Notes: generated from the sequence alone by a model not told the origin. A DNA stretch of 64,000 nucleotides from an uncultured Fidelibacterota bacterium (GCA_913040915.1 CAJWHW010000003.1:9701-73700), one strand, 5' to 3'; positions 29,309 to 50,649 are shown, counted from the first letter of the stretch. Program-made: numbers and translations.

Positions 29309-29343
29309 AGCTATTCCTTTTGATTGATATTCGATAGGTTATC

Positions 29344-31677: not shown

Positions 31678-31716
31678 AGTGTGTATACTAAGTATTTAAG
31701 TACTAACTCTAAATTA

Positions 31717-34785: not shown

Positions 34786-35823
34786 TTATTGATTAATTGA
34801 GAGTATTTGTAATCCTTCGCGGGAACAAACAATTAAATTTTCACCCCAGAACTCTGTTTTGTAAACATAGCCTATAGGAAATAGGCCTTTCTCAATGGGC
34901 TTATTTGGATCGGTAATATCATAAAGTGCAATCCCCTTCGATCCAAGAGACAATGCAGCAATTCCATCATTTACAGAAATATGATCTACAGTCAAATCCT
35001 GTGCAAATCTCACATGTGAATTGCTTGAAGCAGAAAAAACATTATAAGGTATATAAGCAGCTCCAACATCATCACATGAGACAAAAACCCCAGCATCTGC
35101 TAATACAACTTTCTCTGCATTCCCTTCTGTATCAACTCGACCTATGAATTCAGGATCAGCTTCAAGTGAAGCTAATTCATATAATTCCACGCCTAACTGA
35201 TCTACAGCGAGAGCAATATAATTTTCTCCATTAGAGTCTATTCCCTGAGGCTTACCTGGTGTATACAGTTCACCGGCACTCCCCTCTGGATATACCGGAT
35301 TCCAAAAAGAATAACCAAAAACTTCGTAAGGTTCATAAATACTCCACTTTAGACCATCATCATTATCTGCTGCATACATCACAAAGCGACCCGTATCTAT
35401 TGGAAAAGAAACAAATTCTCTAGTCCTTGCACTCATGATTGTATTAATAAAGCTTAAGTTGGAATCACCTACTGTATAATTAAAAATTTGCACATCTTTA
35501 TTTGTTTCAGATGAAAAGATCAGATTATTAGTAATATCAATTTCAATAAGTGAGAGATCATCAAACTCTAAAAAGGATCCCAATTCATAATACCCACTGA
35601 AATCACTCAGTTTTATTTTATCTTTTAGATTCCATATTTGTATCCCTGATTGTCCTGCAGCAATGAAAGCTGTATTGCCGTGAATGGCCACATCTCTTGA
35701 AAAGCCTGTTGTATTTAATACTTCAACTTCCGTTACAGACCACAAATCTTCTACATTAGGTTCAATACACCCAAATAATAATATACTAATAACAGCTATA
35801 AAATGTTTTCTAATATCGATCAT
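34786..35823 (-). CDS. Lipoprotein with LVIVD-like beta-propeller repeats
   Basis: 345 aa with the lipobox ILLFGC. It has repeats of the form AIHGNTAFIAAGQSGIQIWNL, VNDGIAALSLGSKGIALYDITDPNKP and GENLIVCSREGLQILSI. It overlaps the upstream OMP gene by 14 nt. Confidence 0.55.
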   Translation of the reverse strand: MIDIRKHFIAVISILLFGCIEPNVEDLWSVTEVEVLNTTGFSRDVAIHGNTAFIAAGQSGIQIWNLKDKIKLSDFSGYYELGSFLEFDDLSLIEIDITNNLIFSSETNKDVQIFNYTVGDSNLSFINTIMSARTREFVSFPIDTGRFVMYAADNDDGLKWSIYEPYEVFGYSFWNPVYPEGSAGELYTPGKPQGIDSNGENYIALAVDQLGVELYELASLEADPEFIGRVDTEGNAEKVVLADAGVFVSCDDVGAAYIPYNVFSASSNSHVRFAQDLTVDHISVNDGIAALSLGSKGIALYDITDPNKPIEKGLFPIGYVYKTEFWGENLIVCSREGLQILSINQ

Positions 35824-36841
35824 ATACCATATCCCATTCTATTTTGCACCAAAATTGAATTTGATTAAAACTTTTTAAATCTTTTACCCATTCATATGCT
35901 GAATCAGTTGTGCGAATTCTATATCTTCCTGTAAACAAAACTGATACTGCTTCAAATATCTCTTTTTTCACCCATACATCATATTTAGAATCTATGTGAT
36001 CTCTTCCTGCATGGAGCGGGTCATCAGGGTCTTCAGCTCCATACTTTCTATATTCTTCACGTATTGAAAAACCAATTTCATCAACAATTGGAATATTTCT
36101 ATGTATTTTAACTGGCATATACCATTCCATATTGTTATAGGAACGATTAAAACTACTTGGTCGCTCAGTTGATAAATGAGATGTACTTCTTGCATGTCCA
36201 CGGTTGATTTGAAAAGATATAGTTGCTATCCTTTTAATCTTATAATTCACCCTTCCTTTGATATAATGAATATCTAAATCAAACTCCGTAAATGGTTTAT
36301 CATAATATCGTTGAAGATAGCCTGTACTTAGGTTGATCCAGGACTCTCTTAATATCTTTTGTGTGATTGTAATACTTTGATTTCTATCGGTAAAATAGCA
36401 AGGAGCTAGCAAATCATTGCTAATATCACGGTTAATATAATGTCTCAGATAAAAACTATTTAAGTGTCTAACAGAATATTTTATATTTTTATAACTTCCC
36501 CATTTATAAATCGCATCCAGTCCACCACTCCAATATTTTCTTTCAGTGTTATTTTGATAATCAGACCAACTGTAAAAACCATTTATGGAAAAATCTTTTC
36601 TTCTGGAATGCCAAACAGACTTTTTTCCTGATAATCGTAATTTATAAACAAAACTGTCAAAAGTTGATGCACCACCCATGAGAGAATTATCAAGTGCTGC
36701 TTCACCAAATTCATATGTAGAAAATCGTAAAACATTATTATCATACCCACCAGTAATCCCGATGGTATACTCAATAGGTGTTTTACCCAGTAAGTATGAT
36801 GAAATAAAAATAATGTAAAATATATATTTTTGAGAATTCAT
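35810..36841 (-). CDS. Predicted outer-membrane beta-barrel protein, unknown family
   Basis: 343 aa with a signal peptide. It has alternating hydrophobic and Tyr/Arg-rich strands throughout (GITGGYDNNVLRF, YKLRLSGKK, INGFYSWSDY...) and an aromatic C-terminus (...WDMVYDRY). It overlaps the upstream gene by 1 nt. Confidence 0.5.
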   Translation of the reverse strand: MNSQKYIFYIIFISSYLLGKTPIEYTIGITGGYDNNVLRFSTYEFGEAALDNSLMGGASTFDSFVYKLRLSGKKSVWHSRRKDFSINGFYSWSDYQNNTERKYWSGGLDAIYKWGSYKNIKYSVRHLNSFYLRHYINRDISNDLLAPCYFTDRNQSITITQKILRESWINLSTGYLQRYYDKPFTEFDLDIHYIKGRVNYKIKRIATISFQINRGHARSTSHLSTERPSSFNRSYNNMEWYMPVKIHRNIPIVDEIGFSIREEYRKYGAEDPDDPLHAGRDHIDSKYDVWVKKEIFEAVSVLFTGRYRIRTTDSAYEWVKDLKSFNQIQFWCKIEWDMVYDRY

Positions 36842-37719
36842 TAATATAAAATAAAACGAGTAAGGACCACTTTATCCTTATCTGCAACTTCAATTGAATA
36901 AGTGTGTCTCCCTTTTGGTACAGGTATCTCACAAGATCGCCATTTACCCGGAACTTTATCATCCCTTCCTAAAATTTGTGATGCAGATGAGCGCTCAGAA
37001 TTAAAATAATAAGTACCAATGACTTTTTTACCTTCCTTCACTCTAATGCGATATGATTCTTCCTGGCCCATAGAATCAGAAAACTCTAATCGATTCAAAA
37101 TTCTTAGATTATTTTTCCCCCTTGCTTCTATTTGCAAAGGTAATTCCGATGTACACTCAAAATATTTAATCTCTTTTTTATTCGAGATTAGACTGACAGC
37201 ATTTTGATGAACCATTGGAGTAAGCACTTTTTTGTTTTTTCCTATTGATTCAAAATTTTTTGCCAGAACCCGAATTAAAACTGGGTATTTTAACTTTTCA
37301 TTCGATATCAATTCTATAGTTTGGGTTCCTTTTTCTAGGTTAATGAAATAGTTACCAGAATGTGTGTATTTATGTTTTGGGTGTTGTATAGATTTAATGG
37401 ATTTTTGAACTTTGTATCTATGATTTACTTGAATAGTATCTACTCCATTTAATACTATTTTATAATTAAAGGGATGACTTTTATTCTTCTTTTTTATCAC
37501 AGGATATCGTGAAATGAATTCTAAACGTGTAGGGCCTTCTATCGTATAAATAAGTCCTTCATTATTGATGGGATAGTAGAGTCTTCTTTTGGAATTAATA
37601 ATTAAAATCTCTTTATTTTCCCCATTTTTACTGGGCTTCAAAAGTTTTGCTTGCAGTGGCACCGCCATGGTTACAAAAAGAATAAATAGAATTGATTTAG
37701 AGTAGACTGTCAGGTTCAT
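36841..37719 (-). CDS. Secreted hypothetical protein, Lys-rich
   Basis: 292 aa. It has a signal peptide (ILFVTMAVPLQA) and I recognise no motif. In the track ORFs it overlaps the upstream PGA-system gene by 23 nt. Confidence 0.5.
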   Translation of the reverse strand: MNLTVYSKSILFILFVTMAVPLQAKLLKPSKNGENKEILIINSKRRLYYPINNEGLIYTIEGPTRLEFISRYPVIKKKNKSHPFNYKIVLNGVDTIQVNHRYKVQKSIKSIQHPKHKYTHSGNYFINLEKGTQTIELISNEKLKYPVLIRVLAKNFESIGKNKKVLTPMVHQNAVSLISNKKEIKYFECTSELPLQIEARGKNNLRILNRLEFSDSMGQEESYRIRVKEGKKVIGTYYFNSERSSASQILGRDDKVPGKWRSCEIPVPKGRHTYSIEVADKDKVVLTRFILY

Positions 37720-38863
37720 GTTGTATTAAATGCTCTTTAATTTTTGTTTTACTTTGGAGACCAACCATAAACACACATCCTCCTACAACAAATAAGCAAA
37801 TTGCTGCAACAATTAAATTATAGCGTTCATCAGCATAAAGGCTTCCCGTACCAATATCCGGAATAGGGATTGGTGCAAAGGGCATGTTAAACTGTTCTAT
37901 GAGCGGTCTGATATTGAGAATGTGAATTCCAGGAATATCCATTTTTATCATTTTGGAAAATACTCCTTCAATTCCGCCAGGACGAATAATATCGGTCACA
38001 TTTTTACGGTTTACGACTCCAGGTGGTAATAATTTTAAATTAAAACTAGTTCCTAAGCTGGCAACACCTCCACCAACATTGATTACAGCTTTATAATTCA
38101 TTTTTGGTAATATAGAAGAATATGTCATCATACGATTTTGAATATTATCAGCTAATTTTTCCATTTTGATAAGTGGCAGTTGATGATTTGCTATATTTTC
38201 GGTTATTAGTTTCCTCCCTGATGGAGATAACAAACGTCCCATATCATTTCTTCCACCAATTGAAGCTGCAACGCTTTTCGCTGGAATAAGACTATTGTTA
38301 AAGAGAATTGATTCCATATCTAGCCAGGTGAAATCAACCTGATTGGCACCCCATTGAGAAGCACCAACACTTGTAATGGTAATTGGATATACCCCTAACG
38401 ATTTACATGCCGTTAAAACAGCAATATTCGCTCCTGGCATAGAACCTGTCATTAGAATTGCAACCGTATCACTTTCTTTTAGATCAACCTGATACATTAA
38501 ATCAACAATAGCAGCTGAAAAATTAGGATCCAATGTTGTCAATTTCGCATCCAGATCTCCTTCATCTGTTGTAATTAAACTAAATGGACTCCCCACCAGT
38601 CCTGTCTCATTTGGATCATTTTCTATATCAATAAAAATGCCCTGTTCCATTCTACTTTCTTTCAGCAAATTCATTGCTTTTTCCATTAGACGAGCTGCTT
38701 TCACCTTATGTTCATAGGAAGGAGATACATCAATGGTTTTTGTATTCAAAGCAATTAGAAAACAAAGCAAGGATAGAATGGATAAACTCACCAGAGTCGA
38801 TGTCTTTTGAATAGCAGGAATAAAGGGTTGTTTTTTATAATTATTCAAACAGTACTCCACCAA
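37697..38863 (-). CDS. Poly-gamma-glutamate system third component (bitopic membrane protein, PgsA-replacing type)
   Basis: 388 aa with N- and C-terminal TM helices flanking a large extracytoplasmic domain (MTGSMPGANIAVLTACKSLGVYPITITSVGASQWGAN). It lies immediately after pgsB-pgsC. I recall a conserved 'poly-gamma-glutamate system protein' family in this position, and this needs an HMM check. Confidence 0.55.
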   Translation of the reverse strand: MVEYCLNNYKKQPFIPAIQKTSTLVSLSILSLLCFLIALNTKTIDVSPSYEHKVKAARLMEKAMNLLKESRMEQGIFIDIENDPNETGLVGSPFSLITTDEGDLDAKLTTLDPNFSAAIVDLMYQVDLKESDTVAILMTGSMPGANIAVLTACKSLGVYPITITSVGASQWGANQVDFTWLDMESILFNNSLIPAKSVAASIGGRNDMGRLLSPSGRKLITENIANHQLPLIKMEKLADNIQNRMMTYSSILPKMNYKAVINVGGGVASLGTSFNLKLLPPGVVNRKNVTDIIRPGGIEGVFSKMIKMDIPGIHILNIRPLIEQFNMPFAPIPIPDIGTGSLYADERYNLIVAAICLFVVGGCVFMVGLQSKTKIKEHLIQHEPDSLL

Positions 38864-39284
38864 ATAATAACATCACAGCCAGTTTTACCAAAACAGCAGT
38901 CAGAATTACGACTGCAACTGTACGAATAACTCCTTGCCGGTCCATCCAATTTGCAATTAGGCCAGGAATTATATTCCCAATTACAGCGACTGAACCTAAT
39001 TCTTCAGGCATAAAGATAAAATTTCGAGATATATAACCAAAAAAGAATCCAAGAATTAAGGCCAATACAATTCTACGTTTGCCATATAAAAACATAAATT
39101 TCCCCATTACCTGGATAATTGCCCAGACTAATATTGCAACTCCGAACGTGACTAAAACCTGGATCGGATGGTGAAGATAAAGGGAAATATAACCAGGAAC
39201 AATAATCCCTCCCGCCGTGACTCCTAGAGTCTCTGACAATACTAAACTTAATACAATTCCTAGTCCTATGCTGATCTCAGCCAT
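38841..39284 (-). CDS. pgsC: Poly-gamma-glutamate synthesis protein PgsC/CapC
   Basis: 147 aa with four TM helices. It aligns along its whole length with Bacillus CapC as I recall it (GIIVPGYISLYL..., MFLYGKRR, GNIIPGLIANWMDRQG). It overlaps pgsB by 8 nt. Confidence 0.85.
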   Translation of the reverse strand: MAEISIGLGIVLSLVLSETLGVTAGGIIVPGYISLYLHHPIQVLVTFGVAILVWAIIQVMGKFMFLYGKRRIVLALILGFFFGYISRNFIFMPEELGSVAVIGNIIPGLIANWMDRQGVIRTVAVVILTAVLVKLAVMLLFGGVLFE

Positions 39285-40458
39285 GGTATCGATATTCTGC
39301 TATTTTATTTAGTAGTTCTTGTCCAGCACCGACCTGATTTCCAATTGCATAAATCAATGTATCATGAGGCAAATCAATTAATGTATCTACAACAGTATCA
39401 AAATTATCATTCAATCCAATTATTTGTACTTTGGTACCTGGGGAATGGTGCAATAATCTTTGGACAGTATTTTCCACCTTATCACCTCTGATAATGAAAT
39501 GGTCAGGTTTTATCTCTTCAAGTGTCAATTCAATCATTTGGCGCGTACGAATAGGACGGTCGTCACGGGAATTAAAAAAAACACAGGTGCCTCCTTCAGC
39601 GGGATAACGGTCAATAATAAATTTCCATATCTGCAAAGTTGAAACGGGGTCATTAGCAGCCATACCATTAATAAATTGAATTCGTTTATCGTCCTTATCA
39701 AGGTACCATGCTATCAGAGCTCCTAAATCTGGCTTAACCTTGTGCATACCAGATAAAGCAATATCTCTGTCAACACCAACTTTAGTACAGACATCCAAGG
39801 CTACTGCCACGTTCGCTGGATGTTCCATATAGCTGAAATTGTCTAGATCTTTTAGCGTAATTTGTGTTTCATCTGACTGAATAAATTCTGTGTTATTAGC
39901 TGCGGCAACATTTTTTAGTATTTCAGGTTTTTGCTCTTCTCCTGTTATAAGTGTTCCGCCTACTGGAATAGTATTGCATAGAGAGTATGCTACATCATCT
40001 TCAGTCGGTCCCATTTCATCTAGATGGTCTGGACGTACATTAGTAATTACAGCTATATGTGATTGAACCATTTGATGCTCAGCTATCCACTGGTATTGAG
40101 GCTGTACTGCCATGCATTCCATCACAACTGCATCAGGTTTTTCATCTGCGAAATAGCTTAATAGTCTTGTTTGTTCACCTATGGACGGTAGACGCAAGCG
40201 ATGTATGATTCTGTCCTTTCCTTCAGCGTCAATAACTCTAGGTGCCGTGCCTGTAGTTTTTGCAAAGGTTCGGATACCTGCTTCACGAAGTCCCGCTGCT
40301 ATTAACCTTGTTACACTCGATTTTCCCCGGGTTCCATTAACATGGATTCTTAATGGGATAGCGGCCAAAGACCGCATATGATATTGAAATTCAAGAATTC
40401 CCGCGATGCATAAAGCTAATGCCAATGCACCGAGTACAATCAAGGGAGTGATGGACAT
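39277..40458 (-). CDS. pgsB: Poly-gamma-glutamate synthase PgsB/CapB (Mur-ligase-like amide ligase)
   Basis: 393 aa. It has an N-terminal TM helix, then IHVNGTRGKSSVTRLI, ECMAVQPQYQ, VITNVRPDHLDEMGPT, INGMAANDPVST and FFNSRDDRPIRT, closely paralleling Bacillus PgsB as I recall it. Confidence 0.9.
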   Translation of the reverse strand: MSITPLIVLGALALALCIAGILEFQYHMRSLAAIPLRIHVNGTRGKSSVTRLIAAGLREAGIRTFAKTTGTAPRVIDAEGKDRIIHRLRLPSIGEQTRLLSYFADEKPDAVVMECMAVQPQYQWIAEHQMVQSHIAVITNVRPDHLDEMGPTEDDVAYSLCNTIPVGGTLITGEEQKPEILKNVAAANNTEFIQSDETQITLKDLDNFSYMEHPANVAVALDVCTKVGVDRDIALSGMHKVKPDLGALIAWYLDKDDKRIQFINGMAANDPVSTLQIWKFIIDRYPAEGGTCVFFNSRDDRPIRTRQMIELTLEEIKPDHFIIRGDKVENTVQRLLHHSPGTKVQIIGLNDNFDTVVDTLIDLPHDTLIYAIGNQVGAGQELLNKIAEYRYHG

Positions 40459-40483: not shown

Positions 40484-43400
40484 TTACTGGTACCCCAATA
40501 CCATCCGTATCAACGCAACCATGTCCATTACATTCACTAAACCATCTCCGTTGATATCACCAAAATATTCATTCACTAAGCCTTCATTACCAAGATTGTA
40601 GTCAACTAATAAGAGCACATCTTGAACATTAACTTTTCCATCATAATTCAAATCTCCAGCAAGACGTATTGTACTCCCACGAGTTGTAATTAATAATGCT
40701 TTACCATCACCTAATTCCATAGCTGCTGGATGATACTCATCATTGAATGTATATTGTAATCCAACAGTCATTGTTTGATCTTCAATCCCAACAGTACAAT
40801 AATTACCATGAATCTGGTCCCAACTATAAGCACCATAAGATGTATTATTAAAGTCCATATATTGTATAAGAATATCACCATCACCTGTTGGTGTAGAATA
40901 GTATTCAGGATCGAATAAAACTGCTTGGAAGGTTTCAGTCGAATTATTCTGATATGTTCTGACTCTTGACCATTGGATATAAAACCTTTTTTGATCCTCA
41001 TCGTACCAGGTATAAACGCGACCATTATTGGTTAATTTTAAATCATCCCAAAAGACAGCAATCATTCCACCGGGACCACCAACACCAGGAATTTGATAAT
41101 TGCGAAAAGATTCTAAAGTAGACTCGCCCATAGCAATCCACCCGTTGGAACAGATACTTACCTGATCATATTCCTGACCATAAAATTTAAATGTGAAGGG
41201 CAAATTTATTGTCTCTACATCATCTTGGTTATTCCCACCATCCGTTAGGGATGATAAATGAGTACCACTTCCTCCATATCGTCCATCAATTTCAATCCAA
41301 TTATATGTAGGAGATATAGTATATCCAATATCACCACTGTCATATATGTAATATCCATGGGCATCCGGACCAACCGGATCTAATACTGTTGGTTCACCGA
41401 TCTGCACTTCAACAATAGAGTTTGACGTATACCCTTGTTCCGTTTCTATATTAACAATAAAATGGACAATCGCTCCTGGTATTGTTTGTGCTAAAGCTCG
41501 TACCTGAAAATAATCATTACCATTGAGTGAAGAGCCACCAATGGGTACGGTTGTCCATGTGCCGAATGGATCCAAGATTTCTATAAATGGGGATGCACAT
41601 GTAATTGTCCCCGTCACAGCGATTGCATTTGTCGTTCCAGAATTTCCTAATTCAATTTTAATAAAGGAAGTTTCACTAGGTGTCAAAATATCAATTGCAG
41701 ATCCAATCACATCTATATCAATGGCATTTATATTATTTCCAGAAACATTTACATTCAATGCACCAGTAGTTGTGTTTCCTTCGATATCATAAAAATTTAT
41801 TAAAAGATCTAAGTTCGAACCTTCCTGTAAACCTTCTTCTAATGTAATTATAAATGGTGTTGGCGCATTCACAGTATTACCTACTGCAATGGATCCATAA
41901 TTAACTGTGGCAGATTCTATCATCACGCTACTAGATCCACTTGTAATAACTCCATTAATATTACCAGCATCATCACTACCAAAGTTTGTGGCGCTCACAA
42001 ATATTTCTAGTGTTTCACCACCATTAGCAATACCATCTCCATTTCCACTAGATGCACCATAATTATCATCATCAATAGTAAGCGTTGTTTGTAAAAGATT
42101 GACAGCAACTCCTGGATCATAAATCTGGAAAGAACTTTGATAAGGATAGTGATTTTTCTTGGTTACCGTAATTAATACTTCCCCTGTTTCTGATGATGTA
42201 ATTGGTAGACGAATAAATCCATTATCATCAGTATAACCTGATTCAAAAATTTCTCCATCCTTAAGTATTGTAACCCACGCATCTTCTAAAGCGCCATTAC
42301 CCTTGGTAACAGTAACATCTATAAAATTCGTACCCTTGGCTAAAGAATATAGATGTTCAACCGTTATTTGATCTGGGTAACTAGTCCACATGGGCAATGA
42401 TGACTCCCCCATCAGATTATTCCAATGTGTAAAAATATGACAATAGTTATCTGGATTAGTTGGATAATTTTTATACAGTTGCATTTTCCCATACATTAAG
42501 GCTGCACCTACTGTCTCAATACCTTCAATCAATGCCCCATAATAAAAGCCCATATCCACCATGTTATTAAACATTGTATGGGTCCCCAATGTAGCCGTTC
42601 CAATACATGCGACAGATCCTTTTGGATTTGATGATGTACCTGCTCGTATGAAAGATTCAATCAGAGCTTCTTCACTTCCAAACGAACCGGTTCCACAGGT
42701 AATAACTGTTGCCACTGGTAACATGAATCCGTTATTTGTATTATTAACATTTCCAGAAGTAAAACCACTGACACCATAATAGCCACGATAATTAAAAAAG
42801 GAAACACCTTCTGATAGTCCGGCCTGCATTTGATTGGCAAAAGACCCGCTGTAAACAGTGTTAACTTCTTCAAAACCTGCTACATCTAGCATTTCATGGA
42901 TCATTTCATTGCTGATCACACAAGAAACACCAGAAGTAGTTGGATCTCCAACTAAGCAGGCTCGTTGAAACCAATTGTCTCCCAAGTAAGGATTAGATTC
43001 ATAATTAAGTGTTTTACTTATTATTGTAGCCAGTTCAGAACTTGTATCAAATGATAGGCGGCCTAAAAACACTTCCGGAAATTGATCATTCCCTTCCAAG
43101 GTTGAGTATGGATGATCCCCATCACCATTATAATATGACCATGAATCTGACCATGTAGGAATGTCGTAGGTTCCTTCTGCATCACCTACAATGGTAACAA
43201 ATACAGGTGGGTTATCCCAGTCTTCATAGGCATCTTGAATATATGCCTTCAAATTATTTCTATTATTTACAATGGCAGAAGTGTTTATATAATTCACTTC
43301 ATACCCAACACGATTTTTCCATTCCATTAATTCTTCAACATAATTCATCATTGAAGTACTTAGATTATTAGGTAACACGTAGAGGATTGCTGGACGCTGG

Positions 43401-44065
43401 TAGTCAACATTTCTACTTATTGTTGAATAATTTACTACCAAGGATTTATATAGATCTTCAAATGCACGTGATTTTTTTTGAGGGATAAATGGCTCAGTCA
43501 TCATGCCATTTTCTACAAGTTCAACTTCTACACTATGGATGATTGACAACTCTTTTGTAACAGGGTTGTATTGAAACGGCGTGACTGAGACTTGGACCAT
43601 GGTCAAATCACGAAAAATTATTGGTTCAGATACCGTTGCTATTGATGACGGATAAATACTGTCTCTTTCATAAGAGCGGCCTTTAGTAATCTTTCCTGTC
43701 AAATTAGGGTCCCAACTCTCAAATGGACAAACATCAATATTGTTTAATGTTTCAGTTTCTTCAATATTAACCTGTACTGAATAAGATTTTCCTGGTTCTA
43801 CAGCATAAAATGTTGAAACTGTAGGCAAATATGGTTCCCCTGGATTAGCTATAGATCCTGCATTTAGCATTTCTGGTTTTATAAAAACGGATCCATCTTG
43901 CTCAATTTGTTTTAATTCATATCCGGGCATCTCATAACGAATTTTCTTGCCTTGCAATGATGAAATATCATTAAAACCATCATAGACCACTGGTGCTGGG
44001 TTTTCTGCAGCATAGCCAAAGGTTACCGCTACCATGATTACAAGTTGAATGCGAATTTTTGTCAT
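40484..44065 (-). CDS. Peptidase C25 (gingipain-like) family protein with C-terminal dockerin-type repeats (no T9SS CTD)
   Basis: 1193 aa with a signal peptide. C25 blocks are VFVTIVGDAEG...NDQFPEVFLGRLS, FNYRGYYGVSGF and TVITCGTGSF. Ig-like domains and the shared 227-aa module (40682..41362) follow. The C-terminal GDLNYDGKVNVQDVLLLVDY...GDINGDGLVNVMDMVALIRMVLG forms two dockerin-like Ca-binding segments (40493..40657). Confidence 0.8.
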   Translation of the reverse strand: MTKIRIQLVIMVAVTFGYAAENPAPVVYDGFNDISSLQGKKIRYEMPGYELKQIEQDGSVFIKPEMLNAGSIANPGEPYLPTVSTFYAVEPGKSYSVQVNIEETETLNNIDVCPFESWDPNLTGKITKGRSYERDSIYPSSIATVSEPIIFRDLTMVQVSVTPFQYNPVTKELSIIHSVEVELVENGMMTEPFIPQKKSRAFEDLYKSLVVNYSTISRNVDYQRPAILYVLPNNLSTSMMNYVEELMEWKNRVGYEVNYINTSAIVNNRNNLKAYIQDAYEDWDNPPVFVTIVGDAEGTYDIPTWSDSWSYYNGDGDHPYSTLEGNDQFPEVFLGRLSFDTSSELATIISKTLNYESNPYLGDNWFQRACLVGDPTTSGVSCVISNEMIHEMLDVAGFEEVNTVYSGSFANQMQAGLSEGVSFFNYRGYYGVSGFTSGNVNNTNNGFMLPVATVITCGTGSFGSEEALIESFIRAGTSSNPKGSVACIGTATLGTHTMFNNMVDMGFYYGALIEGIETVGAALMYGKMQLYKNYPTNPDNYCHIFTHWNNLMGESSLPMWTSYPDQITVEHLYSLAKGTNFIDVTVTKGNGALEDAWVTILKDGEIFESGYTDDNGFIRLPITSSETGEVLITVTKKNHYPYQSSFQIYDPGVAVNLLQTTLTIDDDNYGASSGNGDGIANGGETLEIFVSATNFGSDDAGNINGVITSGSSSVMIESATVNYGSIAVGNTVNAPTPFIITLEEGLQEGSNLDLLINFYDIEGNTTTGALNVNVSGNNINAIDIDVIGSAIDILTPSETSFIKIELGNSGTTNAIAVTGTITCASPFIEILDPFGTWTTVPIGGSSLNGNDYFQVRALAQTIPGAIVHFIVNIETEQGYTSNSIVEVQIGEPTVLDPVGPDAHGYYIYDSGDIGYTISPTYNWIEIDGRYGGSGTHLSSLTDGGNNQDDVETINLPFTFKFYGQEYDQVSICSNGWIAMGESTLESFRNYQIPGVGGPGGMIAVFWDDLKLTNNGRVYTWYDEDQKRFYIQWSRVRTYQNNSTETFQAVLFDPEYYSTPTGDGDILIQYMDFNNTSYGAYSWDQIHGNYCTVGIEDQTMTVGLQYTFNDEYHPAAMELGDGKALLITTRGSTIRLAGDLNYDGKVNVQDVLLLVDYNLGNEGLVNEYFGDINGDGLVNVMDMVALIRMVLGYQ

Positions 44066-44073
44066 AAGAGCCT

Positions 44074-44718
44074 CTAATATATGATCAATAAGTGAAAAAA
44101 TCCCGGGTAATAAATACTGCCCACATAAACACCAATACCTGATACGGCTAAAAATGGTGCCATTGGCAATGCCCGATCTTTGTCAAAGTCTTTCACCAAT
44201 GAAACGGCTAACCATGTAAATAAACTCAATAGTGAAGCAGAAAATAGCGTTATTGCCATTCTCATAGGGCCTAACCATGCTCCAAGTACAATTCCCATTT
44301 GAATATCACCATATCCCATCCCTTGTCTTTTAGTAACCATCTTCAGAAGTAACATTATTATCAGAGGAATAACTGCACCAACGAAAATTCCCCAAAGCGC
44401 TGCAGTAATATAGGTTAACTTAAGTAAAACATTTACAATTATACCGATGACACCCAGAAGGATAAAAATCAATGGGATTTGAAATGTGTAAAAATCTATA
44501 ACTCCGATCCCCACAAGCAATGTGGAAATAAATGCAAAAATAATCGCTTCACTTAGGGGCAGGCTTAGGAAAGCCCATATCCAGATTAAACTACACATTA
44601 ATTCTAGAAGAATATTTTTTGGTTTAATGTGATACCCATCAATACTTAGCCAATTAATGGTTTGTTTCAATCCAAACCCCGATAGGCATCCACAAATTGT
44701 TGTTAAAAGTAATTCCAC
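44074..44718 (-). CDS. pilD: Prepilin peptidase (A24 family), short form
   Basis: 214 aa polytopic protein. It has GVIDFYTFQIP (first Asp region) and GMGYGDIQMG (second Asp, GxGD). The Cys-rich N-terminal methyltransferase region is not obvious. Confidence 0.75.
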   Translation of the reverse strand: MELLLTTICGCLSGFGLKQTINWLSIDGYHIKPKNILLELMCSLIWIWAFLSLPLSEAIIFAFISTLLVGIGVIDFYTFQIPLIFILLGVIGIIVNVLLKLTYITAALWGIFVGAVIPLIIMLLLKMVTKRQGMGYGDIQMGIVLGAWLGPMRMAITLFSASLLSLFTWLAVSLVKDFDKDRALPMAPFLAVSGIGVYVGSIYYPGFFHLLIIY

Positions 44719-44720
44719 TT

Positions 44721-45968
44721 CTACAGGCCGGATTGCAGCGCAGCACCCATGTGAAAAACAGGTAAATATGTCAGGACAACCATCAACGCTAAAATAGCAC
44801 CCACCATCAGGATTAATAATGGCTCAATTAAGGTGGTCATTCTCTCTACCAACGCATCTACTTGCTTCTGGTAGTAATCAGCGGCGCGATCTAGCAAATC
44901 ATCTAATTCACCGGTCTCTTCACCAGTGGACGCTAATTGTAACAGTATTGATGGGAATACTTCTGTACGACGGAGAGCTGTTGAAATATTATATCCATCT
45001 CGTATGTAATCAGATGCATCTTCAACAGCTTTTTCATAGACACGGTTATCAACAACTTTTTTCAATAATGCTGTGGATTCTAAAACAGGTACACCAGCAC
45101 CAATTAAAATTCCAAAAGTCTTACAAAATTTATTTAGTATAGATTGTTCTAATAATACTCCAAATACGGGGACTTTTAGTTTAAATGAGTCAATTACAAA
45201 TCCACCACGTTGAGTTTTAGAAATCAACCATATTATAAAAACAACAATGAATCCCATAAAGATCATAAATCCAGCATTAGCCTGCAACCAGGCACTTAAA
45301 TCAATCATTTTACGTGTGGCCAGAGGTAGTGACGCTCCTAGAGTTGCATATACTTCAGAAAATTTAGGAATGATAAGTAACATCATGACAAGAAGCATTA
45401 CGCCAAGAAAAACAACCATAAAGATTGGATAGCTCATGGCTGATTTTACCTTTCGTCGTGTATCATCTAGACTTTCTAGATAGGATGATAATTGTTCTAG
45501 TATTTCATTTAGGTTACCACTTACTTCACCAGCTTTCACCATGGCGACAAACAAAGTATTGAATACACCGGGATGTCTTGATAAAGATTCGGAAAGATTA
45601 AGACCCTTTCTGATATTTTCACTGACAGTGGTTAGAATTCGTTTAAACTTTTTGTGTTTTTCTTCAGCTCCAAGACTATGTATAGCTCTTTCAAGTGTCA
45701 AACCAGCAGCAAACATTGTTGCTAACTGGCGTGTGAAAAATACAATATTTGAAAGTGGAATTCTATTCTTAGCTCTTTCAATTGAAAGTTGTATCTCATC
45801 TATAAATGGTCCTAAAAAATCAAATGAATCATCCACTTCCTTCAATGTGATGACCATTTGGCCATTTGCCGATAATTTTTGAATGGCTAAGTCCAGAGAG
45901 TCTGCACGTATTTCCCCTTCCTTACGCTGTCCTTCTGAATTTTTAGTTAAATATGAAAAAATAGCCAC
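44721..45968 (-). CDS. pilC: Type IV pilus inner-membrane platform protein PilC (GspF family)
   Basis: 415 aa with two GspF-type repeats (FTRQLATMFAAGLTLERAI; FCKTFGILIGAGVPVLES) and three TM segments. It overlaps pilB by 1 nt. Confidence 0.9.
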   Translation of the reverse strand: MAIFSYLTKNSEGQRKEGEIRADSLDLAIQKLSANGQMVITLKEVDDSFDFLGPFIDEIQLSIERAKNRIPLSNIVFFTRQLATMFAAGLTLERAIHSLGAEEKHKKFKRILTTVSENIRKGLNLSESLSRHPGVFNTLFVAMVKAGEVSGNLNEILEQLSSYLESLDDTRRKVKSAMSYPIFMVVFLGVMLLVMMLLIIPKFSEVYATLGASLPLATRKMIDLSAWLQANAGFMIFMGFIVVFIIWLISKTQRGGFVIDSFKLKVPVFGVLLEQSILNKFCKTFGILIGAGVPVLESTALLKKVVDNRVYEKAVEDASDYIRDGYNISTALRRTEVFPSILLQLASTGEETGELDDLLDRAADYYQKQVDALVERMTTLIEPLLILMVGAILALMVVLTYLPVFHMGAALQSGL

Positions 45969-47686
45969 TATAAATCTTCAACTGTTGATCTCATAACTTC
46001 TTCTATAGATGTTGTACCATCCAAAATACGTTCTAACCCAGCTTCCCTCAGTGTTACCATTCCATTATCTAAGGCAGCCTGTCTTATATCATCTTCATTA
46101 GCATTTTCAAAAACAAGTTTTCTGAGTTCTCTTGCCATTGGTATCATTTCAAAAATTGCTAATCGTCCCTTGTAGCCCGTATTACGGCATTCTGTACACC
46201 CTTTTCCATGGTAAAGCGGCCCTTTTATACGGCTTGATTCTAAGCCAACCAATGCTAATTCTTCATTTGATGGTTTATATTCTTCTTTGCATGATTTACA
46301 TATACGCCTTACCAAACGCTGGGCCATAACCAGATTTAAACAAGAACCAACCAGAAACGGTGCAATTCCAATATCAAGCAAACGTGTTAATGTTCCCGGA
46401 GCATCATTTGCGTGAACCGTTGAAAAGACTAAGTGACCAGTCAGTGCAAACTTTACCGCAATATCCGCTGTTTCACCATCACGGATTTCGCCAATAAGCA
46501 ACACATCAGGATCTTGACGCAAGATTGAACGCAGCGTTGAACCAAATGTAAGTCCAATATCTTCAAATACCTGTACCTGGTTCACTCCATCTAACTGGTA
46601 TTCCACTGGATCTTCAACAGTAGTTATATTAGTACGTTCACTTTTGATCTCTTTTAAAGCAGCGTATAGGCTTGTCGATTTACCGGAGCCTGTTGGGCCG
46701 GATACCACAACCATACCGTAAGGCTGATTAATTACCTTTTTAAAAACCCCAAGATTTCTTTTAGGAAAACCTAATGAAGTTAAATTGAAATCAAATCCAG
46801 TTTTATCTAAAAGACGCATTACAATCTTTTCCCCATAAACGGTTGGCAGTATTGAGACACGAACGTCGAGCTCTTTTCCGGGAGACTTTATTGAAAATCT
46901 ACCATCCTGGGGTAATCTTTTCTCTGCAATATTTAATTTTGACAGAATCTTAATTCGGGTTACTAAACCACTTAAGGATGTGACTGGTGGTGTCATAATC
47001 GTCTGGAGTACACCGTCAATGCGAATTCGTACATAAAGCTGTTTTTCCATAGGTTCAATATGCACATCTGTCGCACGCTCTTTAATGGATTCCTGTAAAA
47101 TCAAATTAACTAACTTTACAATAGGAGCATCTTCTTCTGAAGCTTTGTCCGGAGATAGATTAACTTCTTCTTTAGAGCCTTCATCACCAGAGATAACTGT
47201 AATATTGTCTAATACATCACTCACTTCTGCAGTTTTTTGGATCTCTCCATAAACTCTATCGAGCGATTTTTCCATCATGTCATGACCACAGACAATAATA
47301 TCAGGATTAAGGTTTGTTAATCGCTTGATGGAATCAATAGCCACTAAATCTTCAGGATCTTCCATGGCAACGGTAATTGCTGAATCATTTTTGTTTACTG
47401 CCAATACTCTGTTCGTTCTGGCAAAATCTTCAGGTATCATGGCAGCAATATTGGCATCGGCTTCCAGTAAAATAAAGTTGTCTGCTTTGCGGTATCCTAA
47501 CTGTTGAGCAAAAGCCGTTACAAAATCATCTTCTTCAATGATACCCATCTCAATAAGAGTAACGCCTATTTTTTCATTAGTTGATTTTTGTTGTGCTAAC
47601 CCTTCATTTAATTGGCCTTCTGTGACTTTTTCATTATGAAGAAGTATCTCACCTAATTTTGAAAATTGTGGGTTAAAATCATTCAT
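45968..47686 (-). CDS. pilB: Type IV pilus assembly (extension) ATPase PilB with MshEN-like N-terminal domain
   Basis: 572 aa. It has GPTGSGKST Walker A, the Asp box, Walker B LLIGEIRD, the His box and the tetracysteine CKSC...CTEC. Tandem MshEN-type motifs occupy residues 10-62. Confidence 0.9.
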   Translation of the reverse strand: MNDFNPQFSKLGEILLHNEKVTEGQLNEGLAQQKSTNEKIGVTLIEMGIIEEDDFVTAFAQQLGYRKADNFILLEADANIAAMIPEDFARTNRVLAVNKNDSAITVAMEDPEDLVAIDSIKRLTNLNPDIIVCGHDMMEKSLDRVYGEIQKTAEVSDVLDNITVISGDEGSKEEVNLSPDKASEEDAPIVKLVNLILQESIKERATDVHIEPMEKQLYVRIRIDGVLQTIMTPPVTSLSGLVTRIKILSKLNIAEKRLPQDGRFSIKSPGKELDVRVSILPTVYGEKIVMRLLDKTGFDFNLTSLGFPKRNLGVFKKVINQPYGMVVVSGPTGSGKSTSLYAALKEIKSERTNITTVEDPVEYQLDGVNQVQVFEDIGLTFGSTLRSILRQDPDVLLIGEIRDGETADIAVKFALTGHLVFSTVHANDAPGTLTRLLDIGIAPFLVGSCLNLVMAQRLVRRICKSCKEEYKPSNEELALVGLESSRIKGPLYHGKGCTECRNTGYKGRLAIFEMIPMARELRKLVFENANEDDIRQAALDNGMVTLREAGLERILDGTTSIEEVMRSTVEDL

Positions 47687-47705: not shown

Positions 47706-50639
47706 TTAATCGCACTCTACTGGAGATCGAACCAATAAAATATCTAATGGATCACTCGTTGTAATAGTTGGAATCATTAATGTAGCGCTGATACTTGATG
47801 TAAAATCATCATAACTGCAGATTGGAGGATCATCAGTTGATGTATTTGCCAGATTACAAAGTTCTTTCAAATATCGAACAGATATACTCGCATACCCATC
47901 TTCATCAGTTAAAACAATTGGTTCGCATCCAATCATTGAGTAGCCATTCCATTCTCCGTCACCTTCTCCCTGATCAGCTGTACCTTCTAAACCATCTAAA
48001 CCAAAATCATCAAAATTCTCAGAAACTTCAGATACATCCCACTCACCATCACCTGTTGTGTCAATTGCATCATGGATATTATTATAATTTCCCCAATCAA
48101 CGGTCTCAGGGTCATCATCAGCTCCATAGTCCCTCCATGAAAAACAGCCATCATTTTCGCCAGCTAATATATCTCCTGAGTCTTCTAAAGTATCCAGTCC
48201 CCAATCTTCGTAGGCTTCATATCCTACTTCTACCCAGCGACTAACACCTGTACCTACAAATGACACTGGAGCACCTACTACTGGGTTTCCATAATAGTCA
48301 ATAACAATCGCCGTGACTGTAATGTCAACGGAGTCTGTAGGAAATGGTATGCTAAAATCATGGTAGGTTGCATTCGATGTAAGTGTCACCGCTCCTGGCA
48401 GGAAAAACAAGGTAGCATCTCCTTCACCTTCATTAATGTAAGACGATAGAAAATCACTTTCACCATCACCATCCAAGTCACCAGTCGCTGTTGTTGCCCT
48501 AACTTTTCCAATATCACCAATCGCATCTGTGGAATAAATTATAAATGATCTAGCCATACCAACAGTTGCTTCACCACTTTGAACACCTTCATTATTTGTA
48601 AAACTTACGCCTTCAACTACAGCATCAATAGTTGTATCAGGAGGCAGAGGAGCAATATCCCAATAAACGTAGGTTGTATCTTCTACGGGGTTACCATGTA
48701 TATCTGAAACAAGTGCGGCACACTCAGTCCGATAAAAACCTCCACCTACAGCTTCAGTACTGTTTGGATCATATTCAGCTTCTATACGATGAGGTTGTCC
48801 AGAAGCAATTGTTACAGGTACATCAATGACAGTTAGATCATTGCTACCATCCTGGTCACAGTCACAAGTAGCAACAATTCTTACTGGTCCTGGTTCGGAC
48901 CCACTATTAATAGAAACCGTAGCCACACCATTCACAGTATAAATTGTAGCCGATGTTTGCCCAGGTGTCTCTAAGTAAGCGTCACCAACTAAAGGTTCAA
49001 TTGTGAAGACGACTGGGGTTGGTGTGTTTATTAGTGTTCCATTATCATCATAGACTTCTGCCTTAATAAAAGTCGACTCAAGCCCACCACCATCTCTAAC
49101 AACAATATCGCCTGGTATTGACGCTGGAATCTCCATAAACGCACAGGTTTGAAAAGATGGATCTTCTATATAGACCTGTAGTGAATCTTGGATTAAGGTT
49201 GATGAAAACCCTGGGTGAGAAAACGTCGCCGAAATATCGGATACACCAACATCTTCCGGATTTCCTAAGTCTGTAAATACAGCAGTATCTGTACCTACAG
49301 TATCTGTTAAACCTATAGCATTAATAAAACCTAGGGTGGCTTCATAATTGATTTGAGCATTCCCAACGGGATTTCCGAGCTTATTGAGCAGCCGCGTTAC
49401 AATATTTGCAACTGTCTCCCCTCCATCAAGGGCAATTACATCTGTGTCTGTAGTAACAAAAAGATTGTAGGGCCACACATCATCTTCAGAATAGACATTG
49501 AATCTTTCACCTTCTGTAATTTTATCTCCAAATTTTGCAACTACAGTTACACCTTCAAAATTCGGCGTTCCAGGATTATCTTTATAGGTATTGCCGCCGT
49601 CATCAAAATGAGCAATGACCTGCCCATCTGAATTAGATACACTGCTCTGATAATTTATTGTACCCACATCAACATTGCTTGATGTGGCAACAAATTCTAC
49701 AGATTGTCCTGATATTGGATTTCCAGCTGTATCAGTAACCGTTGCAATGAGCCTGGTTTGAGATGCATCCCCTGCTATATCTTCACCAACCACGACTGTA
49801 TTATTCGATTCATCAAATGAGACTGGTAAGATCTCCATTGAGAGTCCATTATCGGTTCCAATGATAACTTGGACTGAATCAGATATGGACAAATCAAAAC
49901 CTTCATGGGTAAATGTGCATACAATATTTGCTGGTCCAATATCTTCTGGAACCCCATTATCCTGAAAAGTTAAGGTAACTGCTCCTGTGCTATCTGTTTC
50001 ACCTTCAGAATCAATAAAGCCCCGATCCGTATCAAATGATAGGATAACATTTTGAAGAGGTATATTTGATTTATTCAACAGTCGCGCTTCTATTTCTGCC
50101 GTAGTAGCGCCATTATCTAACTTGATATTGTCCACGTCCGATGAAACGAATAGTGTATATGGCCACACATCATCCTTTTCCTGATAAACATTAAATTGAG
50201 CTTTTGCCGTGATAGTTGTATTTGCATATGTCGCAGTAACAGTTAGACCTTCATAATCAGGCGTTGTTGTCCTGTCAACCATTTCTTCTGAACTGTTTGG
50301 CTTAAACGTGTTCACCACCTCTCCATTCTCATCAGTATTAACAGACCTACCATTAGTATAGTCTCCACCACCGCCACCATTATCTGAAAATGTGATGCTT
50401 TCATTTTTTATCGGAGTTCCGTCTGAATTATTCAGTGTAAACACCATACGCATATTAGATGAGCCAGATACAACTTCACCAACTGATGTACCATCATTTG
50501 TAACAGCCTGTAAGGAATTAAGTGTCAGTGTAGCATTCGGGTTTGTGGTCTCTTCAGGCAGTCTTTCATCACAAGCAAGGTTCATAAAAATAATGCCGTA
50601 GAAAATGGGATAAATAGATTTTGATTTAATTTTAAACAT
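47706..50639 (-). CDS. Large lipoprotein with bacterial Ig-like (Big) domains and acidic Ca-binding-like C-terminal region, embedded in the pilus operon
   Basis: The track ORF (to 50792) overlaps pilQ. The ATG at 50639 gives MFKIKSKSIYPIFYGIIFMNLAC (signal peptide plus lipobox Cys) just 10 nt after the pilQ stop, for 977 aa. It has two tandem super-repeats of about 230 aa and a D/E/G-rich region (TGDGEWDVSEVSENFDDFGLDGLEGTADQGEGDGEWNG). Confidence 0.75.
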   Translation of the reverse strand: MFKIKSKSIYPIFYGIIFMNLACDERLPEETTNPNATLTLNSLQAVTNDGTSVGEVVSGSSNMRMVFTLNNSDGTPIKNESITFSDNGGGGGDYTNGRSVNTDENGEVVNTFKPNSSEEMVDRTTTPDYEGLTVTATYANTTITAKAQFNVYQEKDDVWPYTLFVSSDVDNIKLDNGATTAEIEARLLNKSNIPLQNVILSFDTDRGFIDSEGETDSTGAVTLTFQDNGVPEDIGPANIVCTFTHEGFDLSISDSVQVIIGTDNGLSMEILPVSFDESNNTVVVGEDIAGDASQTRLIATVTDTAGNPISGQSVEFVATSSNVDVGTINYQSSVSNSDGQVIAHFDDGGNTYKDNPGTPNFEGVTVVAKFGDKITEGERFNVYSEDDVWPYNLFVTTDTDVIALDGGETVANIVTRLLNKLGNPVGNAQINYEATLGFINAIGLTDTVGTDTAVFTDLGNPEDVGVSDISATFSHPGFSSTLIQDSLQVYIEDPSFQTCAFMEIPASIPGDIVVRDGGGLESTFIKAEVYDDNGTLINTPTPVVFTIEPLVGDAYLETPGQTSATIYTVNGVATVSINSGSEPGPVRIVATCDCDQDGSNDLTVIDVPVTIASGQPHRIEAEYDPNSTEAVGGGFYRTECAALVSDIHGNPVEDTTYVYWDIAPLPPDTTIDAVVEGVSFTNNEGVQSGEATVGMARSFIIYSTDAIGDIGKVRATTATGDLDGDGESDFLSSYINEGEGDATLFFLPGAVTLTSNATYHDFSIPFPTDSVDITVTAIVIDYYGNPVVGAPVSFVGTGVSRWVEVGYEAYEDWGLDTLEDSGDILAGENDGCFSWRDYGADDDPETVDWGNYNNIHDAIDTTGDGEWDVSEVSENFDDFGLDGLEGTADQGEGDGEWNGYSMIGCEPIVLTDEDGYASISVRYLKELCNLANTSTDDPPICSYDDFTSSISATLMIPTITTSDPLDILLVRSPVECD
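49164..50537 (-). repeat. Tandem protein-level duplication (227 aa + 231 aa) inside the pilus-operon lipoprotein
   Basis: Unit 1 (49857..50537) ends ...EGLTVTATYANTTITAKAQFNVYQEKDDVWPYTLFVSSDVDNIKLDNGATTAEIEARLLNK...VQVIIG. Unit 2 (49164..49856) ends ...EGVTVVAKFGDKITEGERFNVYSEDDVWPYNLFVTTDTDVIALDGGETVANIVTRLLNK...LQVYIE. Confidence 0.75.
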
Positions 50640-50649
50640 GCTGCACTCC

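Follow-up and report, generated by a model that had tools for sequence, protein, structure and literature searches.

The C25-dockerin gene and its locus

The window, that is, the whole stretch of 64,000 nucleotides (nt) analysed here, carries on its minus strand a gene for a C25-family protein of 1193 amino acids (aa) that ends in a dockerin. This gene, hereafter the C25-dockerin gene, is located between a pilD-like prepilin peptidase gene and pgsB, with which a cassette for poly-gamma-glutamate (PGA) begins (Table 1). Its open reading frame (ORF) and the two short gaps given in the initial annotation, 8 nt past pilD and 25 nt ahead of pgsB, turned out to be exact. The source is a bacterium of the Marinimicrobia (Neomarinimicrobiota, SAR406), abundant uncultured ocean bacteria whose surface biology is inferred from genomes alone, and related loci belong to metagenome-assembled genomes (MAGs) and single-amplified genomes of this phylum. 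A large protein database holds 676 homologues of the protein, and nearly all of the 120 listed (48-99% identity) share its architecture, many of them with a NIDO annotation.

At the domain level, the protein starts with a predicted Sec-type signal peptide in which a basic n-region and a hydrophobic core are followed by G-Y-A ahead of the predicted cut; inspection of the sequence revealed no lipobox Cys at this N-terminus. In an AlphaFold2 (AF2) model obtained from 69 orthologues (predicted local distance difference test, pLDDT, 76.6; predicted template-modelling score, pTM, 0.61), residues 2-19 are helical with low pLDDT, and part of the catalytic domain reaches only 50-70. The signal peptide is followed by a gingipain-type propeptide, the Peptidase_C25 catalytic domain and an immunoglobulin (Ig)-like domain that is made of beta strands in the model, and the Foldseek alignment to the gingipain RgpB covers both the catalytic and the Ig superfamily parts of this enzyme. 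The further beta-sandwich domains are the least conserved part of the protein and correspond to CARDB- or Big_1-type matches in homologues. The NIDO-like region is strongly conserved and, at the same position, PF06119 is above its cutoff in the homologues of loci L110 and L116; the query protein itself has no PF06119 match at E<=0.01. Horizontal transfer of the gene was considered and rejected because its GC content agrees with that of its neighbours and its synteny is maintained throughout the clade. Promoters and terminators predicted around it were no more numerous than in shuffled sequence.

Table 1. Features of the window, with positions counted from its first nucleotide (CTD, C-terminal domain; T9SS, type IX secretion system).
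Feature	Position	Strand	Remarks
C25-dockerin gene, whole	40484..44065	-	1193-aa C25-family protein with C-terminal dockerin; ORF and translation, Pfam
Sec-type signal peptide, aa 1-20	44006..44065	-	MTKIRIQLVIMVAVTFGYA before and AE after the predicted cleavage site; read from sequence
Gingipain-type propeptide, aa 40-216	43418..43948	-	Pfam Propeptide_C25 (PF08126), 92 bits
Peptidase_C25 catalytic domain, aa 237-545	42431..43357	-	Pfam PF01364, 153.5 bits (cutoff 23)
Arg427 codon	42785..42787	-	Equivalent to RgpB Thr209, base of S1 pocket; putative substrate-binding residue
Tyr429 codon	42779..42781	-	Position of RgpB catalytic His211
Cys457 codon	42695..42697	-	Equivalent to RgpB catalytic Cys244; codon checked
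His496 codon	42578..42580	-	T-H-T motif, aligned to RgpB Tyr283 in L5 loop; candidate relocated catalytic His
Ig-like domain, aa 564-645	42131..42376	-	Weak Peptidase_C25_C match, 16.6 bits, below cutoff
Further beta-sandwich domains, aa ~655-890	41396..42103	-	All-beta in model, pLDDT 80-90
NIDO-like domain, aa ~896-1130	40676..41380	-	PF06119 precomputed for many orthologues
Type-I dockerin, aa 1136-1190	40496..40660	-	Pfam Dockerin_1 (PF00404), 29.0 bits (cutoff 22.9)
PGA cassette	34786..40458	-	After C25 gene; order kept in all loci
pgsB	39277..40458	-	TIGR04012, NCBIfam equivalog, 414 bits
pgsC	38841..39284	-	NCBIfam equivalog
TIGR04332 protein gene	37697..38863	-	NCBIfam subfamily match
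u292	36841..37719	-	Conserved unknown
u343	35810..36841	-	Conserved unknown; terminal aromatic residue, like outer-membrane barrel
u345	34786..35823	-	Lipoprotein, invariant lipobox Cys, eight-blade LVIVD-type propeller match
pilD-like prepilin peptidase gene	44074..44718	-	Peptidase_A24, weak, 38 bits; 214 aa
pilC	44721..45968	-	Pfam T2SSF
pilB	45968..47686	-	Pfam T2SSE
Big_1-repeat ORF	47706..50792	-	1028 aa
Secretin ORF	50650..52083	-	
T9SS-cargo triad	26123..34776	-	Pfam and NCBIfam
1019-aa protein gene	31717..34776	-	W-x-D-x-R repeats, T9SS CTD
M14 carboxypeptidase gene	29344..31677	-	T9SS CTD
C25 paralogue gene	26123..29308	-	NIDO-like domain and T9SS CTD
Further CTD-bearing protein gene	59913..63887		
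Further CTD-bearing protein gene	23362..25023	+	
518-aa protein gene	20936..22492	-	No Pfam family; three EF-hand or thrombospondin-type-3-like calcium loops

Conservation of the C25 gene with the PGA cassette

Around 30 loci at 51-81% identity are fully syntenic with the window, from pilM-N-O, the secretin gene, the Big_1 lipoprotein gene, pilB, pilC and pilD through the C25-dockerin gene to pgsB and, after it, pgsC, the TIGR04332 gene, u292, u343, u345 and the genes for the 1019-aa CTD protein and the M14-CTD protein. A scan anchored on pgsB retrieved 33 loci, in which the C25 gene or its dockerin tail lies upstream wherever upstream sequence exists; these are Marinimicrobia loci only, with no outgroup pgsB locus returned. 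A broader alignment-based scan added 76 loci and, after removal of duplicates, yielded 105 distinct C25-like genes. When those with a downstream sequence of 1.5 kb or more were tallied, pgsB was found to be the next gene in 60 of the dockerin-tailed genes (not in 10), in 4 of those with a T9SS CTD (not in 15) and in the single gene whose tail was left unclassified (not in 0). There are thus 65 distinct C25 genes placed directly ahead of pgsB, one in the window and the others in 64 further genomes. Of these 65 pairs, 61 had an upstream sequence of 1.5 kb or more, in which four arrangements were observed: pilC and pilD in 41 pairs (the unclassified gene and 40 of dockerin type), pilC alone in 6, a divergently transcribed pilin/pilT cluster in 10, and unrelated genes without pil in 4. 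In L108, for instance, a divergent intergenic region of 300 nt precedes the C25-dockerin gene, which is followed by pgsB after 76 nt, and in L110 a CTD-type C25 gene encoding 1810 aa lies 49 nt ahead of pgsB with the same six cassette genes behind. Since the upstream contexts differ while the order of the pgs genes stays constant, the conserved unit is formed by C25 and the six cassette genes, in the order C25, pgsB, pgsC, TIGR04332, u292, u343, u345, and the partner of the C25 gene is the PGA cassette, not pilD. No description of such a cassette in Marinimicrobia was found in the searchable literature.

A role related to either PGA or the pilus had been proposed in the initial annotation. The first half of this proposal gains comparative support from 65 genes, which are adjacent to pgsB whichever tail they carry and across all four upstream contexts. 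The second half does not extend beyond a clade: adjacency to pilD is specific to one clade, with ten lineages showing the divergent pilin/pilT cluster, four no pil gene upstream and six no pilD. In L061, L062, L090, L092, L098 and L100-L102, pilC is followed by C25 with no pilD-like gene in between. It is quite improbable that the protein is a cargo or accessory factor of a type IV pilus/type II secretion-like machine, whether exported across the outer membrane by PilBCD/PilQ or acting on pilus proteins. Such a role would fit the closeness to the pilD-like gene, whose stop codon is overlapped by the ribosome-binding site of the C25 gene, as well as the synteny of the entire pilMNOQ-pilBCD cluster in the main clade and the fact that dockerin-type pgs-linked copies, unlike CTD-type ones, are always near some pil genes. 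However, the pil neighbours vary by lineage (pilBCD on the same strand versus pilin/pilT on the opposite one), down to the loss of pilD already mentioned, the lineages are few and non-independent, and the dockerin-type paralogues of L031, L107, L116, L122, L128 and L133 do not have pil neighbours.

Regarding the cassette itself, PgsA is not among its genes. The TIGR04332 protein, u292, u343 and u345 may constitute a PGA export apparatus in a two-membrane bacterium, and the literature searched contained nothing relevant on the export, trimming or anchoring of PGA in bacteria of this kind.

The locus was also examined in marine metatranscriptomes, where contigs matching the C25 gene at 99% identity or more were present in four of six runs. 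Near-identical RNA contigs map to 41068-41441, 41631-41813 and 42848-42998, all inside the gene, and across the 34-52 kb span the six runs gave no other contigs at that identity outside it. These contigs show that the C25 gene is transcribed in nature or, at worst, that DNA was carried over, and they suggest that its RNA is more abundant than that of its pil and pgs neighbours. Being sparse and restricted to C25, they do not show co-transcription with pgsB.

A gingipain-type precursor

Structural and profile comparisons agree in relating the protein to gingipains. RgpB (1cvr) is matched by the family profile with E=4.5e-35 and by the AF2 model with a Foldseek E=1.8e-23 and a template-modelling (TM) score of 0.82 (TM scores by target), and the RgpB pro-domain (4ief_A) is recovered with a profile E=6e-22 and a Foldseek TM of 0.80; Kgp aligns to the model with a TM of 0.72. 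PorU, the C25 member that acts as sortase of the T9SS, gives a Foldseek E=3e-12 with a TM of 0.16, its sequence is not matched by the C25-dockerin family profile, and the NCBIfam T9SS_sortase model NF033707 (cutoff 420 bits) does not match the protein at E<=0.01. The C25 paralogue of the window scores only 41 bits on this same model. The strong match to the fold and propeptide of RgpB, together with the lack of a PorU match in the family-profile and NCBIfam searches, identifies a gingipain-type precursor and not a PorU. Membership of PorU was therefore rejected, and there is no support for the analogy drawn in the initial annotation, against which the gingipain propeptide and the presence of a tyrosine (Tyr429) at the position of the catalytic His also argue. 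A PorU-type sortase paralogue, cleaving CTDs and attaching cargo, is highly improbable: membership of the C25 family and the presence of several T9SS cargo proteins in the window would be in agreement with it, but, in addition to the mismatches above, the protein lacks a CTD and the canonical His. PorU works with a Cys/His dyad and keeps its own CTD for PorV binding (PMC10202324).

An altered active site shared by the C25 clade

When the catalytic domain was used to scan 1.84 billion cluster representatives with HMMER, 6014 clusters passed a threshold of E<=1e-3 and 661 one of E<=1e-30; the best 150 of these 661 (38-59% identity) were aligned with the query to give a set of 151 clade sequences. 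Residues were mapped onto RgpB by means of a phmmer alignment to 1cvr and an independent MAFFT alignment, which were in agreement. In the C25 family the catalytic Cys comes after the fourth core strand (Cys244 in RgpB) and the catalytic His, within a G-H-G motif, after the third (His211 in RgpB). The nucleophile is preserved, with Cys457 invariant in 116 orthologues and present in 148 of the 151 clade members. The position of the catalytic His, on the other hand, has changed across the clade, the motif N-Y-T-G-H-G of RgpB reading N-Y-R-G-Y-Y-G in the C25-dockerin protein. Column 429 holds Y or F in the 116 orthologues, and among the 151 sequences its seven commonest entries (147/151) are Y (62), F (40), W (28), I (9), L (5), T (2) and a gap (1), with H in none (0/151). 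Arg427 is kept in 150/151 and His496 in 138/151, and Cys457 and His496 are the sole Cys and the sole His of the domain with more than 90% conservation. RgpB Glu152 falls opposite a gap and Asp163 aligns to Cys382, a position occupied by T or C across the clade; D317, D374 and E470, located at active-site positions or close to them, are conserved. In RgpB, the S1 pocket has Thr209 at its base and is lined by Gln282 and Trp284 (PMC9559808, PMC4357240). The acidic anchor that gives gingipains their Arg/Lys specificity (Asp163) is not found in the C25-dockerin protein. The same signature is present in the C25 paralogue of the window, with W at the His position, and in L034 and L035, from MAGs labelled Cloacimonadota or unclassified. 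A family-wide loss or relocation of the catalytic His was not found in the searchable literature.

Judging from these conservation patterns, the C25-dockerin protein is probably still an enzyme, with Cys457 and His496 as its putative catalytic pair and an S1 pocket that would have shifted from acidic to basic, a change that would therefore lead to a preference for acidic groups. Loss of the canonical His can be given a different meaning, namely that the protein is a catalytically dead pseudo-peptidase, an adhesin or scaffold whose caspase-fold, NIDO-like and Ig-like domains only bind ligands. The clade-wide absence of an equivalent of His211, the gap at Glu152 and the replacement of Asp163 are compatible with this idea, as are the poor confidence with which the former His loop is modelled and the abundance of binding-type domains. 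It nevertheless seems very doubtful, given the near-universal retention of Cys457 and the conservation of His496, Arg427, D317, D374 and E470. Moreover, the inhibitory propeptide has been retained, which is hard to reconcile with a dead enzyme and argues for a real protease that is kept latent.

Dockerin and T9SS tails as alternatives

The two dockerin-like calcium-binding segments described in the initial annotation are indeed present, with a Pfam match above the cutoff. The loops D1138-D1149 and D1170-D1181 each read D-x-N-x-D-G-x-x-x-x-x-D and are followed by a helix (1147-1157 and 1179-1189 in the AF2 model), and the calcium-ligand positions D1138, D1142, D1149, D1170, N1172, D1174, N1178 and D1181 are unchanged in 69 orthologues. 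Solved clostridial dockerins are matched by both single-sequence and family-profile searches, with profile E values down to 2.8e-5. This dockerin pair is the only one in the window. The absence of a T9SS sorting domain was likewise corroborated when a cryptic CTD was looked for: Pfam and NCBIfam gave no match (Por_Secre_tail, TIGR04183), a local CTD model run with filters off detected nothing in the last 200 aa, and the AF2 model's C-terminus consists of two helices with no beta-sandwich. As for the six other CTD-bearing proteins that had been counted in the window, five can be supported, the three of the triad and two more (Table 1).

Among the 150 clade representatives, 24 end in a dockerin, 82 in a T9SS CTD and none in both; the other 44 are mostly fragments. 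Dockerin and CTD are thus alternative, mutually exclusive tails in the C25 clade. In a rough neighbour-joining tree of the C25 copies, built without support values and used only qualitatively, dockerin-type copies of the locus all fall inside the Marinimicrobia clade and outgroup copies bear CTDs. The suggestion that the protein is displayed by a different route from its paralogue at 26123..29308 is correct insofar as the T9SS signal is absent from the former and present in the latter; the route itself is plausible because the two tails exclude each other across the family. An exchange of dockerin and CTD on several enzyme families was not found in the searchable literature.

It is important to remark that the dockerin is not peculiar to the C25 gene. 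In Marinimicrobia, dockerins above the Pfam cutoff also end an M14 carboxypeptidase, an AhpC/redoxin protein and an FG-GAP/thioredoxin protein and are found on an InhA-like protein, and a GH53 fragment has a weaker terminal match (19.3 bits, below the cutoff of 22.9). Since dockerins end several other proteins of the phylum, the dockerin is a general localisation module in Marinimicrobia. The combination of a C25 peptidase with a dockerin, moreover, is not unique, having been published for Ca. Stygibacter of the Cloacimonadota (PMC8542988); the literature searched makes no mention of dockerins in Marinimicrobia. The nature of the redox-type carriers indicates that some dockerin proteins may stay in the periplasm, so that the surface and the periplasm are both candidate locations for the C25-dockerin protein.

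Several individual cases illustrate the use of these modules. The M14 carboxypeptidase of L031 (8804-11110, minus strand) ends in a dockerin, and that of the window (29344..31677, minus strand) in a T9SS CTD. The InhA-like (M6-type) protein of L033 (1227-4529, minus strand) contains a Dockerin_1 module plus a terminal T9SS CTD; as both are carried by one protein, the dockerin there serves in binding and is no signal for export. In L133 (4365..16509, plus strand), three C25-dockerin paralogues lie in tandem, and after them comes an FG-GAP/thioredoxin protein, again with a terminal dockerin; no cohesin lies near this dockerin-rich island.

The search for cohesins comprised the 64 kb of the window and flanks of at most 10 kb. 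None was detected by Pfam in ten uncharacterised proteins of the window (E<=10), by profile searches against the PDB in the 1019-aa CTD protein, the Big_1 lipoprotein, u292, u343 and u345, or by Pfam among ten neighbours of other dockerin genes. The earlier observation that no cohesin-like partner is evident in the window therefore stands for the proteins scanned.

Other neighbouring genes

The pilD-like gene shows no second Pfam domain at the N-terminus of its product. Classical PilD has an N-terminal methyltransferase domain, and therefore this 214-aa peptidase looks like the short peptidases of the TadV/archaeal type. Further upstream, an overlap of 143 nt exists between the secretin ORF and the 1028-aa Big_1-repeat ORF. 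An alignment of orthologues of the latter shows no conservation before an invariant L-S-C lipobox (C74), so that its true start is probably further downstream; in that case, the product would be a lipoprotein whose C-terminal part is rich in D and Cys. Its gene is syntenic between pilQ and pilB. In addition to the genes of the triad, the window encodes a 518-aa protein with calcium loops of its own (Table 1).

A capsule-coupled (trans)peptidase as a tentative function

Because the C25 gene leads a conserved pgs cassette, the most likely role of its product is that of a (trans)peptidase coupled to the capsule. We tentatively propose, with a probability of roughly 0.4, that it is a dockerin-tethered cysteine (trans)peptidase of the inactive-precursor type, with a functional coupling to the PGA capsule. 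According to this proposal, a multidomain gingipain-like precursor would be exported by the Sec route with its inhibitory propeptide; Cys457 would then catalyse together with His496, and the basic S1 pocket would favour acidic groups. The dockerin, in place of a T9SS tail destined for attachment to lipopolysaccharide, would attach the enzyme, by non-covalent contacts, to a partner whose gene lies in another part of the genome. The enzyme would be produced along with the PGA machinery and would trim, release or anchor PGA, as a functional, non-homologous counterpart of PgdS or CapD of Bacillus. PGA loci of Bacillus encode a PGA-processing enzyme, capD in capBCADE and pgdS after pgsBCAE.

Several observations weigh against this proposal. 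At the transcript level, RNA contigs were recovered for the C25 gene only, with none for the pgs genes and none across the C25-pgsB junction. At the level of the active site, the protein could be inactive for want of the canonical His, and the AF2 model is of low confidence in the 428-432 loop where this residue formerly lay. The same active-site signature is also present in hundreds of clade members away from pgs genes, including the paralogue of the window, and no column of the catalytic domain separates pgs-linked from unlinked Marinimicrobia copies. A cohesin partner was not found in the window proteins or dockerin-gene neighbours scanned, and we know of no clan CD enzyme that cuts gamma-glutamyl bonds. 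Finally, outgroup homologues, from MAGs labelled Cloacimonadota or Lentisphaeria, are located beside M14 and another C25 gene and not beside pgs, a neighbourhood that fits general proteolysis.

This last point leads to an ordinary explanation which is possible, if somewhat unlikely: the protein would be a general nutritional exoprotease that digests external proteins with the M14 carboxypeptidases and is kept near the cell by its dockerin, its position between pil and pgs genes reflecting an island of surface genes. The gingipain fold and precursor layout are those expected of a protease, the family is large with many paralogues per genome (such as the three tandem copies of L133), and none of its residues is specific to the pgs-linked copies. 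An M14 peptidase and a GH53 enzyme likewise carry dockerins, and C25 enzymes have been listed among the extracellular peptidases of Marinimicrobia MAGs (PMC8359207). M14 and C25 paralogue genes are moreover neighbours of the gene in the window, and the triad to which they belong recurs by a homologue of the C25-dockerin gene in L112 and L142 (MAGs labelled Lentisphaeria), where there are no pgs genes. However, this explanation does not account for a same-strand, short-gap adjacency to pgsB that is maintained in 65 genes despite four upstream rearrangements and a swap of tails. If the link with the capsule were wrong, the protein would be a well-supported and transcribed, but ordinary, candidate for a surface or periplasmic protease.

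The capsule-coupled role can be extended to a broader reading which, taken as a whole, we regard as unlikely. In it, the clade would represent a new clan CD arrangement (Cys457 with a His from the L5 loop and an Arg in S1) whose pgs-linked members would be the missing PGA-processing or anchoring enzymes of two-membrane producers, sensing the alpha-carboxylate that is left free in gamma-linked glutamate; they would be tethered by the dockerin to the capsule or envelope, possibly without a classical cohesin, as part of a phylum-wide dockerin display parallel to the T9SS.

The label "gingipain-like cysteine peptidases" may misdescribe the chemistry of the C25 clade (661 clusters at E<=1e-30). The seven-gene unit couples a C25 protein to PGA synthesis in a two-membrane bacterium, and the swaps of dockerin and T9SS tails on the C25, M14 and M6-like families point to two parallel display systems in one phylum. 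While the combination of C25 and dockerin is already known (PMC8542988), the clade-wide loss or relocation of the catalytic His, the C25-PGA cassette and the dockerin/CTD swapping are, as far as the searchable literature shows, new.

Comparison with known systems

The closest well-characterised relatives in fold are RgpB and Kgp of Porphyromonas gingivalis (MEROPS C25), with which the C25-dockerin protein shares the inhibitory propeptide, the caspase-fold domain, the Ig-like domain and the position of the nucleophilic Cys. In contrast to them, it has a Tyr in place of His211, lacks the Asp163 charge anchor and Glu152, carries Arg427 and His496 at pocket positions, contains around 550 extra residues (beta-sandwich and NIDO-like regions) and ends in a dockerin instead of a T9SS CTD; its host is a free-living marine bacterium and theirs an oral pathogen. 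PorU is also a C25-family cysteine enzyme and provides a precedent for transpeptidation within the family, but it differs from the C25-dockerin protein, which does not match its family model, resembles its fold only weakly and has neither a CTD nor the canonical His.

In terms of architecture, the nearest precedent is the C25 protein of Ca. Stygibacter (Williams et al. 2021, PMC8542988), which likewise combines a signal peptide, a Peptidase_C25 domain and a dockerin at the C-terminus, in a phylum that belongs to the FCB group, and whose genome also encodes PGA synthesis (PMC8542988). Ca. Stygibacter possesses, in addition, a 3755-aa cohesin scaffoldin with a T9SS CTD for which a cellulosome-like complex has been proposed (PMC8542988), whereas no cohesin was found among the proteins scanned here. 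Adjacency of C25 and pgs genes was not reported there (PMC8542988), and the Cloacimonadota homologues retrieved here bear CTDs and are located away from pgsB. With clostridial type-I dockerins, such as that of CelS from C. thermocellum, the C25-dockerin protein has in common two 12-residue calcium loops, each with a helix; its carrier is, however, peptidase-like and belongs to a two-membrane bacterium, and the proteins scanned contained no cohesin. Loop positions 10/11 are an S-T pair in C. thermocellum dockerins and V-Q and V-M here.

With respect to function, the systems to be compared are CapD (GGT family) and PgdS (NlpC/P60) of Bacillus. The C25-dockerin protein has a clan CD fold with no homology to either of them, in accordance with the absence of any Pfam or NCBIfam match to a GGT or NlpC/P60 domain; it comes from a two-membrane host, and its activity on PGA is only predicted. 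What these systems share is a PGA operon that contains or adjoins the gene of a hydrolase or transpeptidase and, in the case of PgdS, the use of a cysteine peptidase as well.

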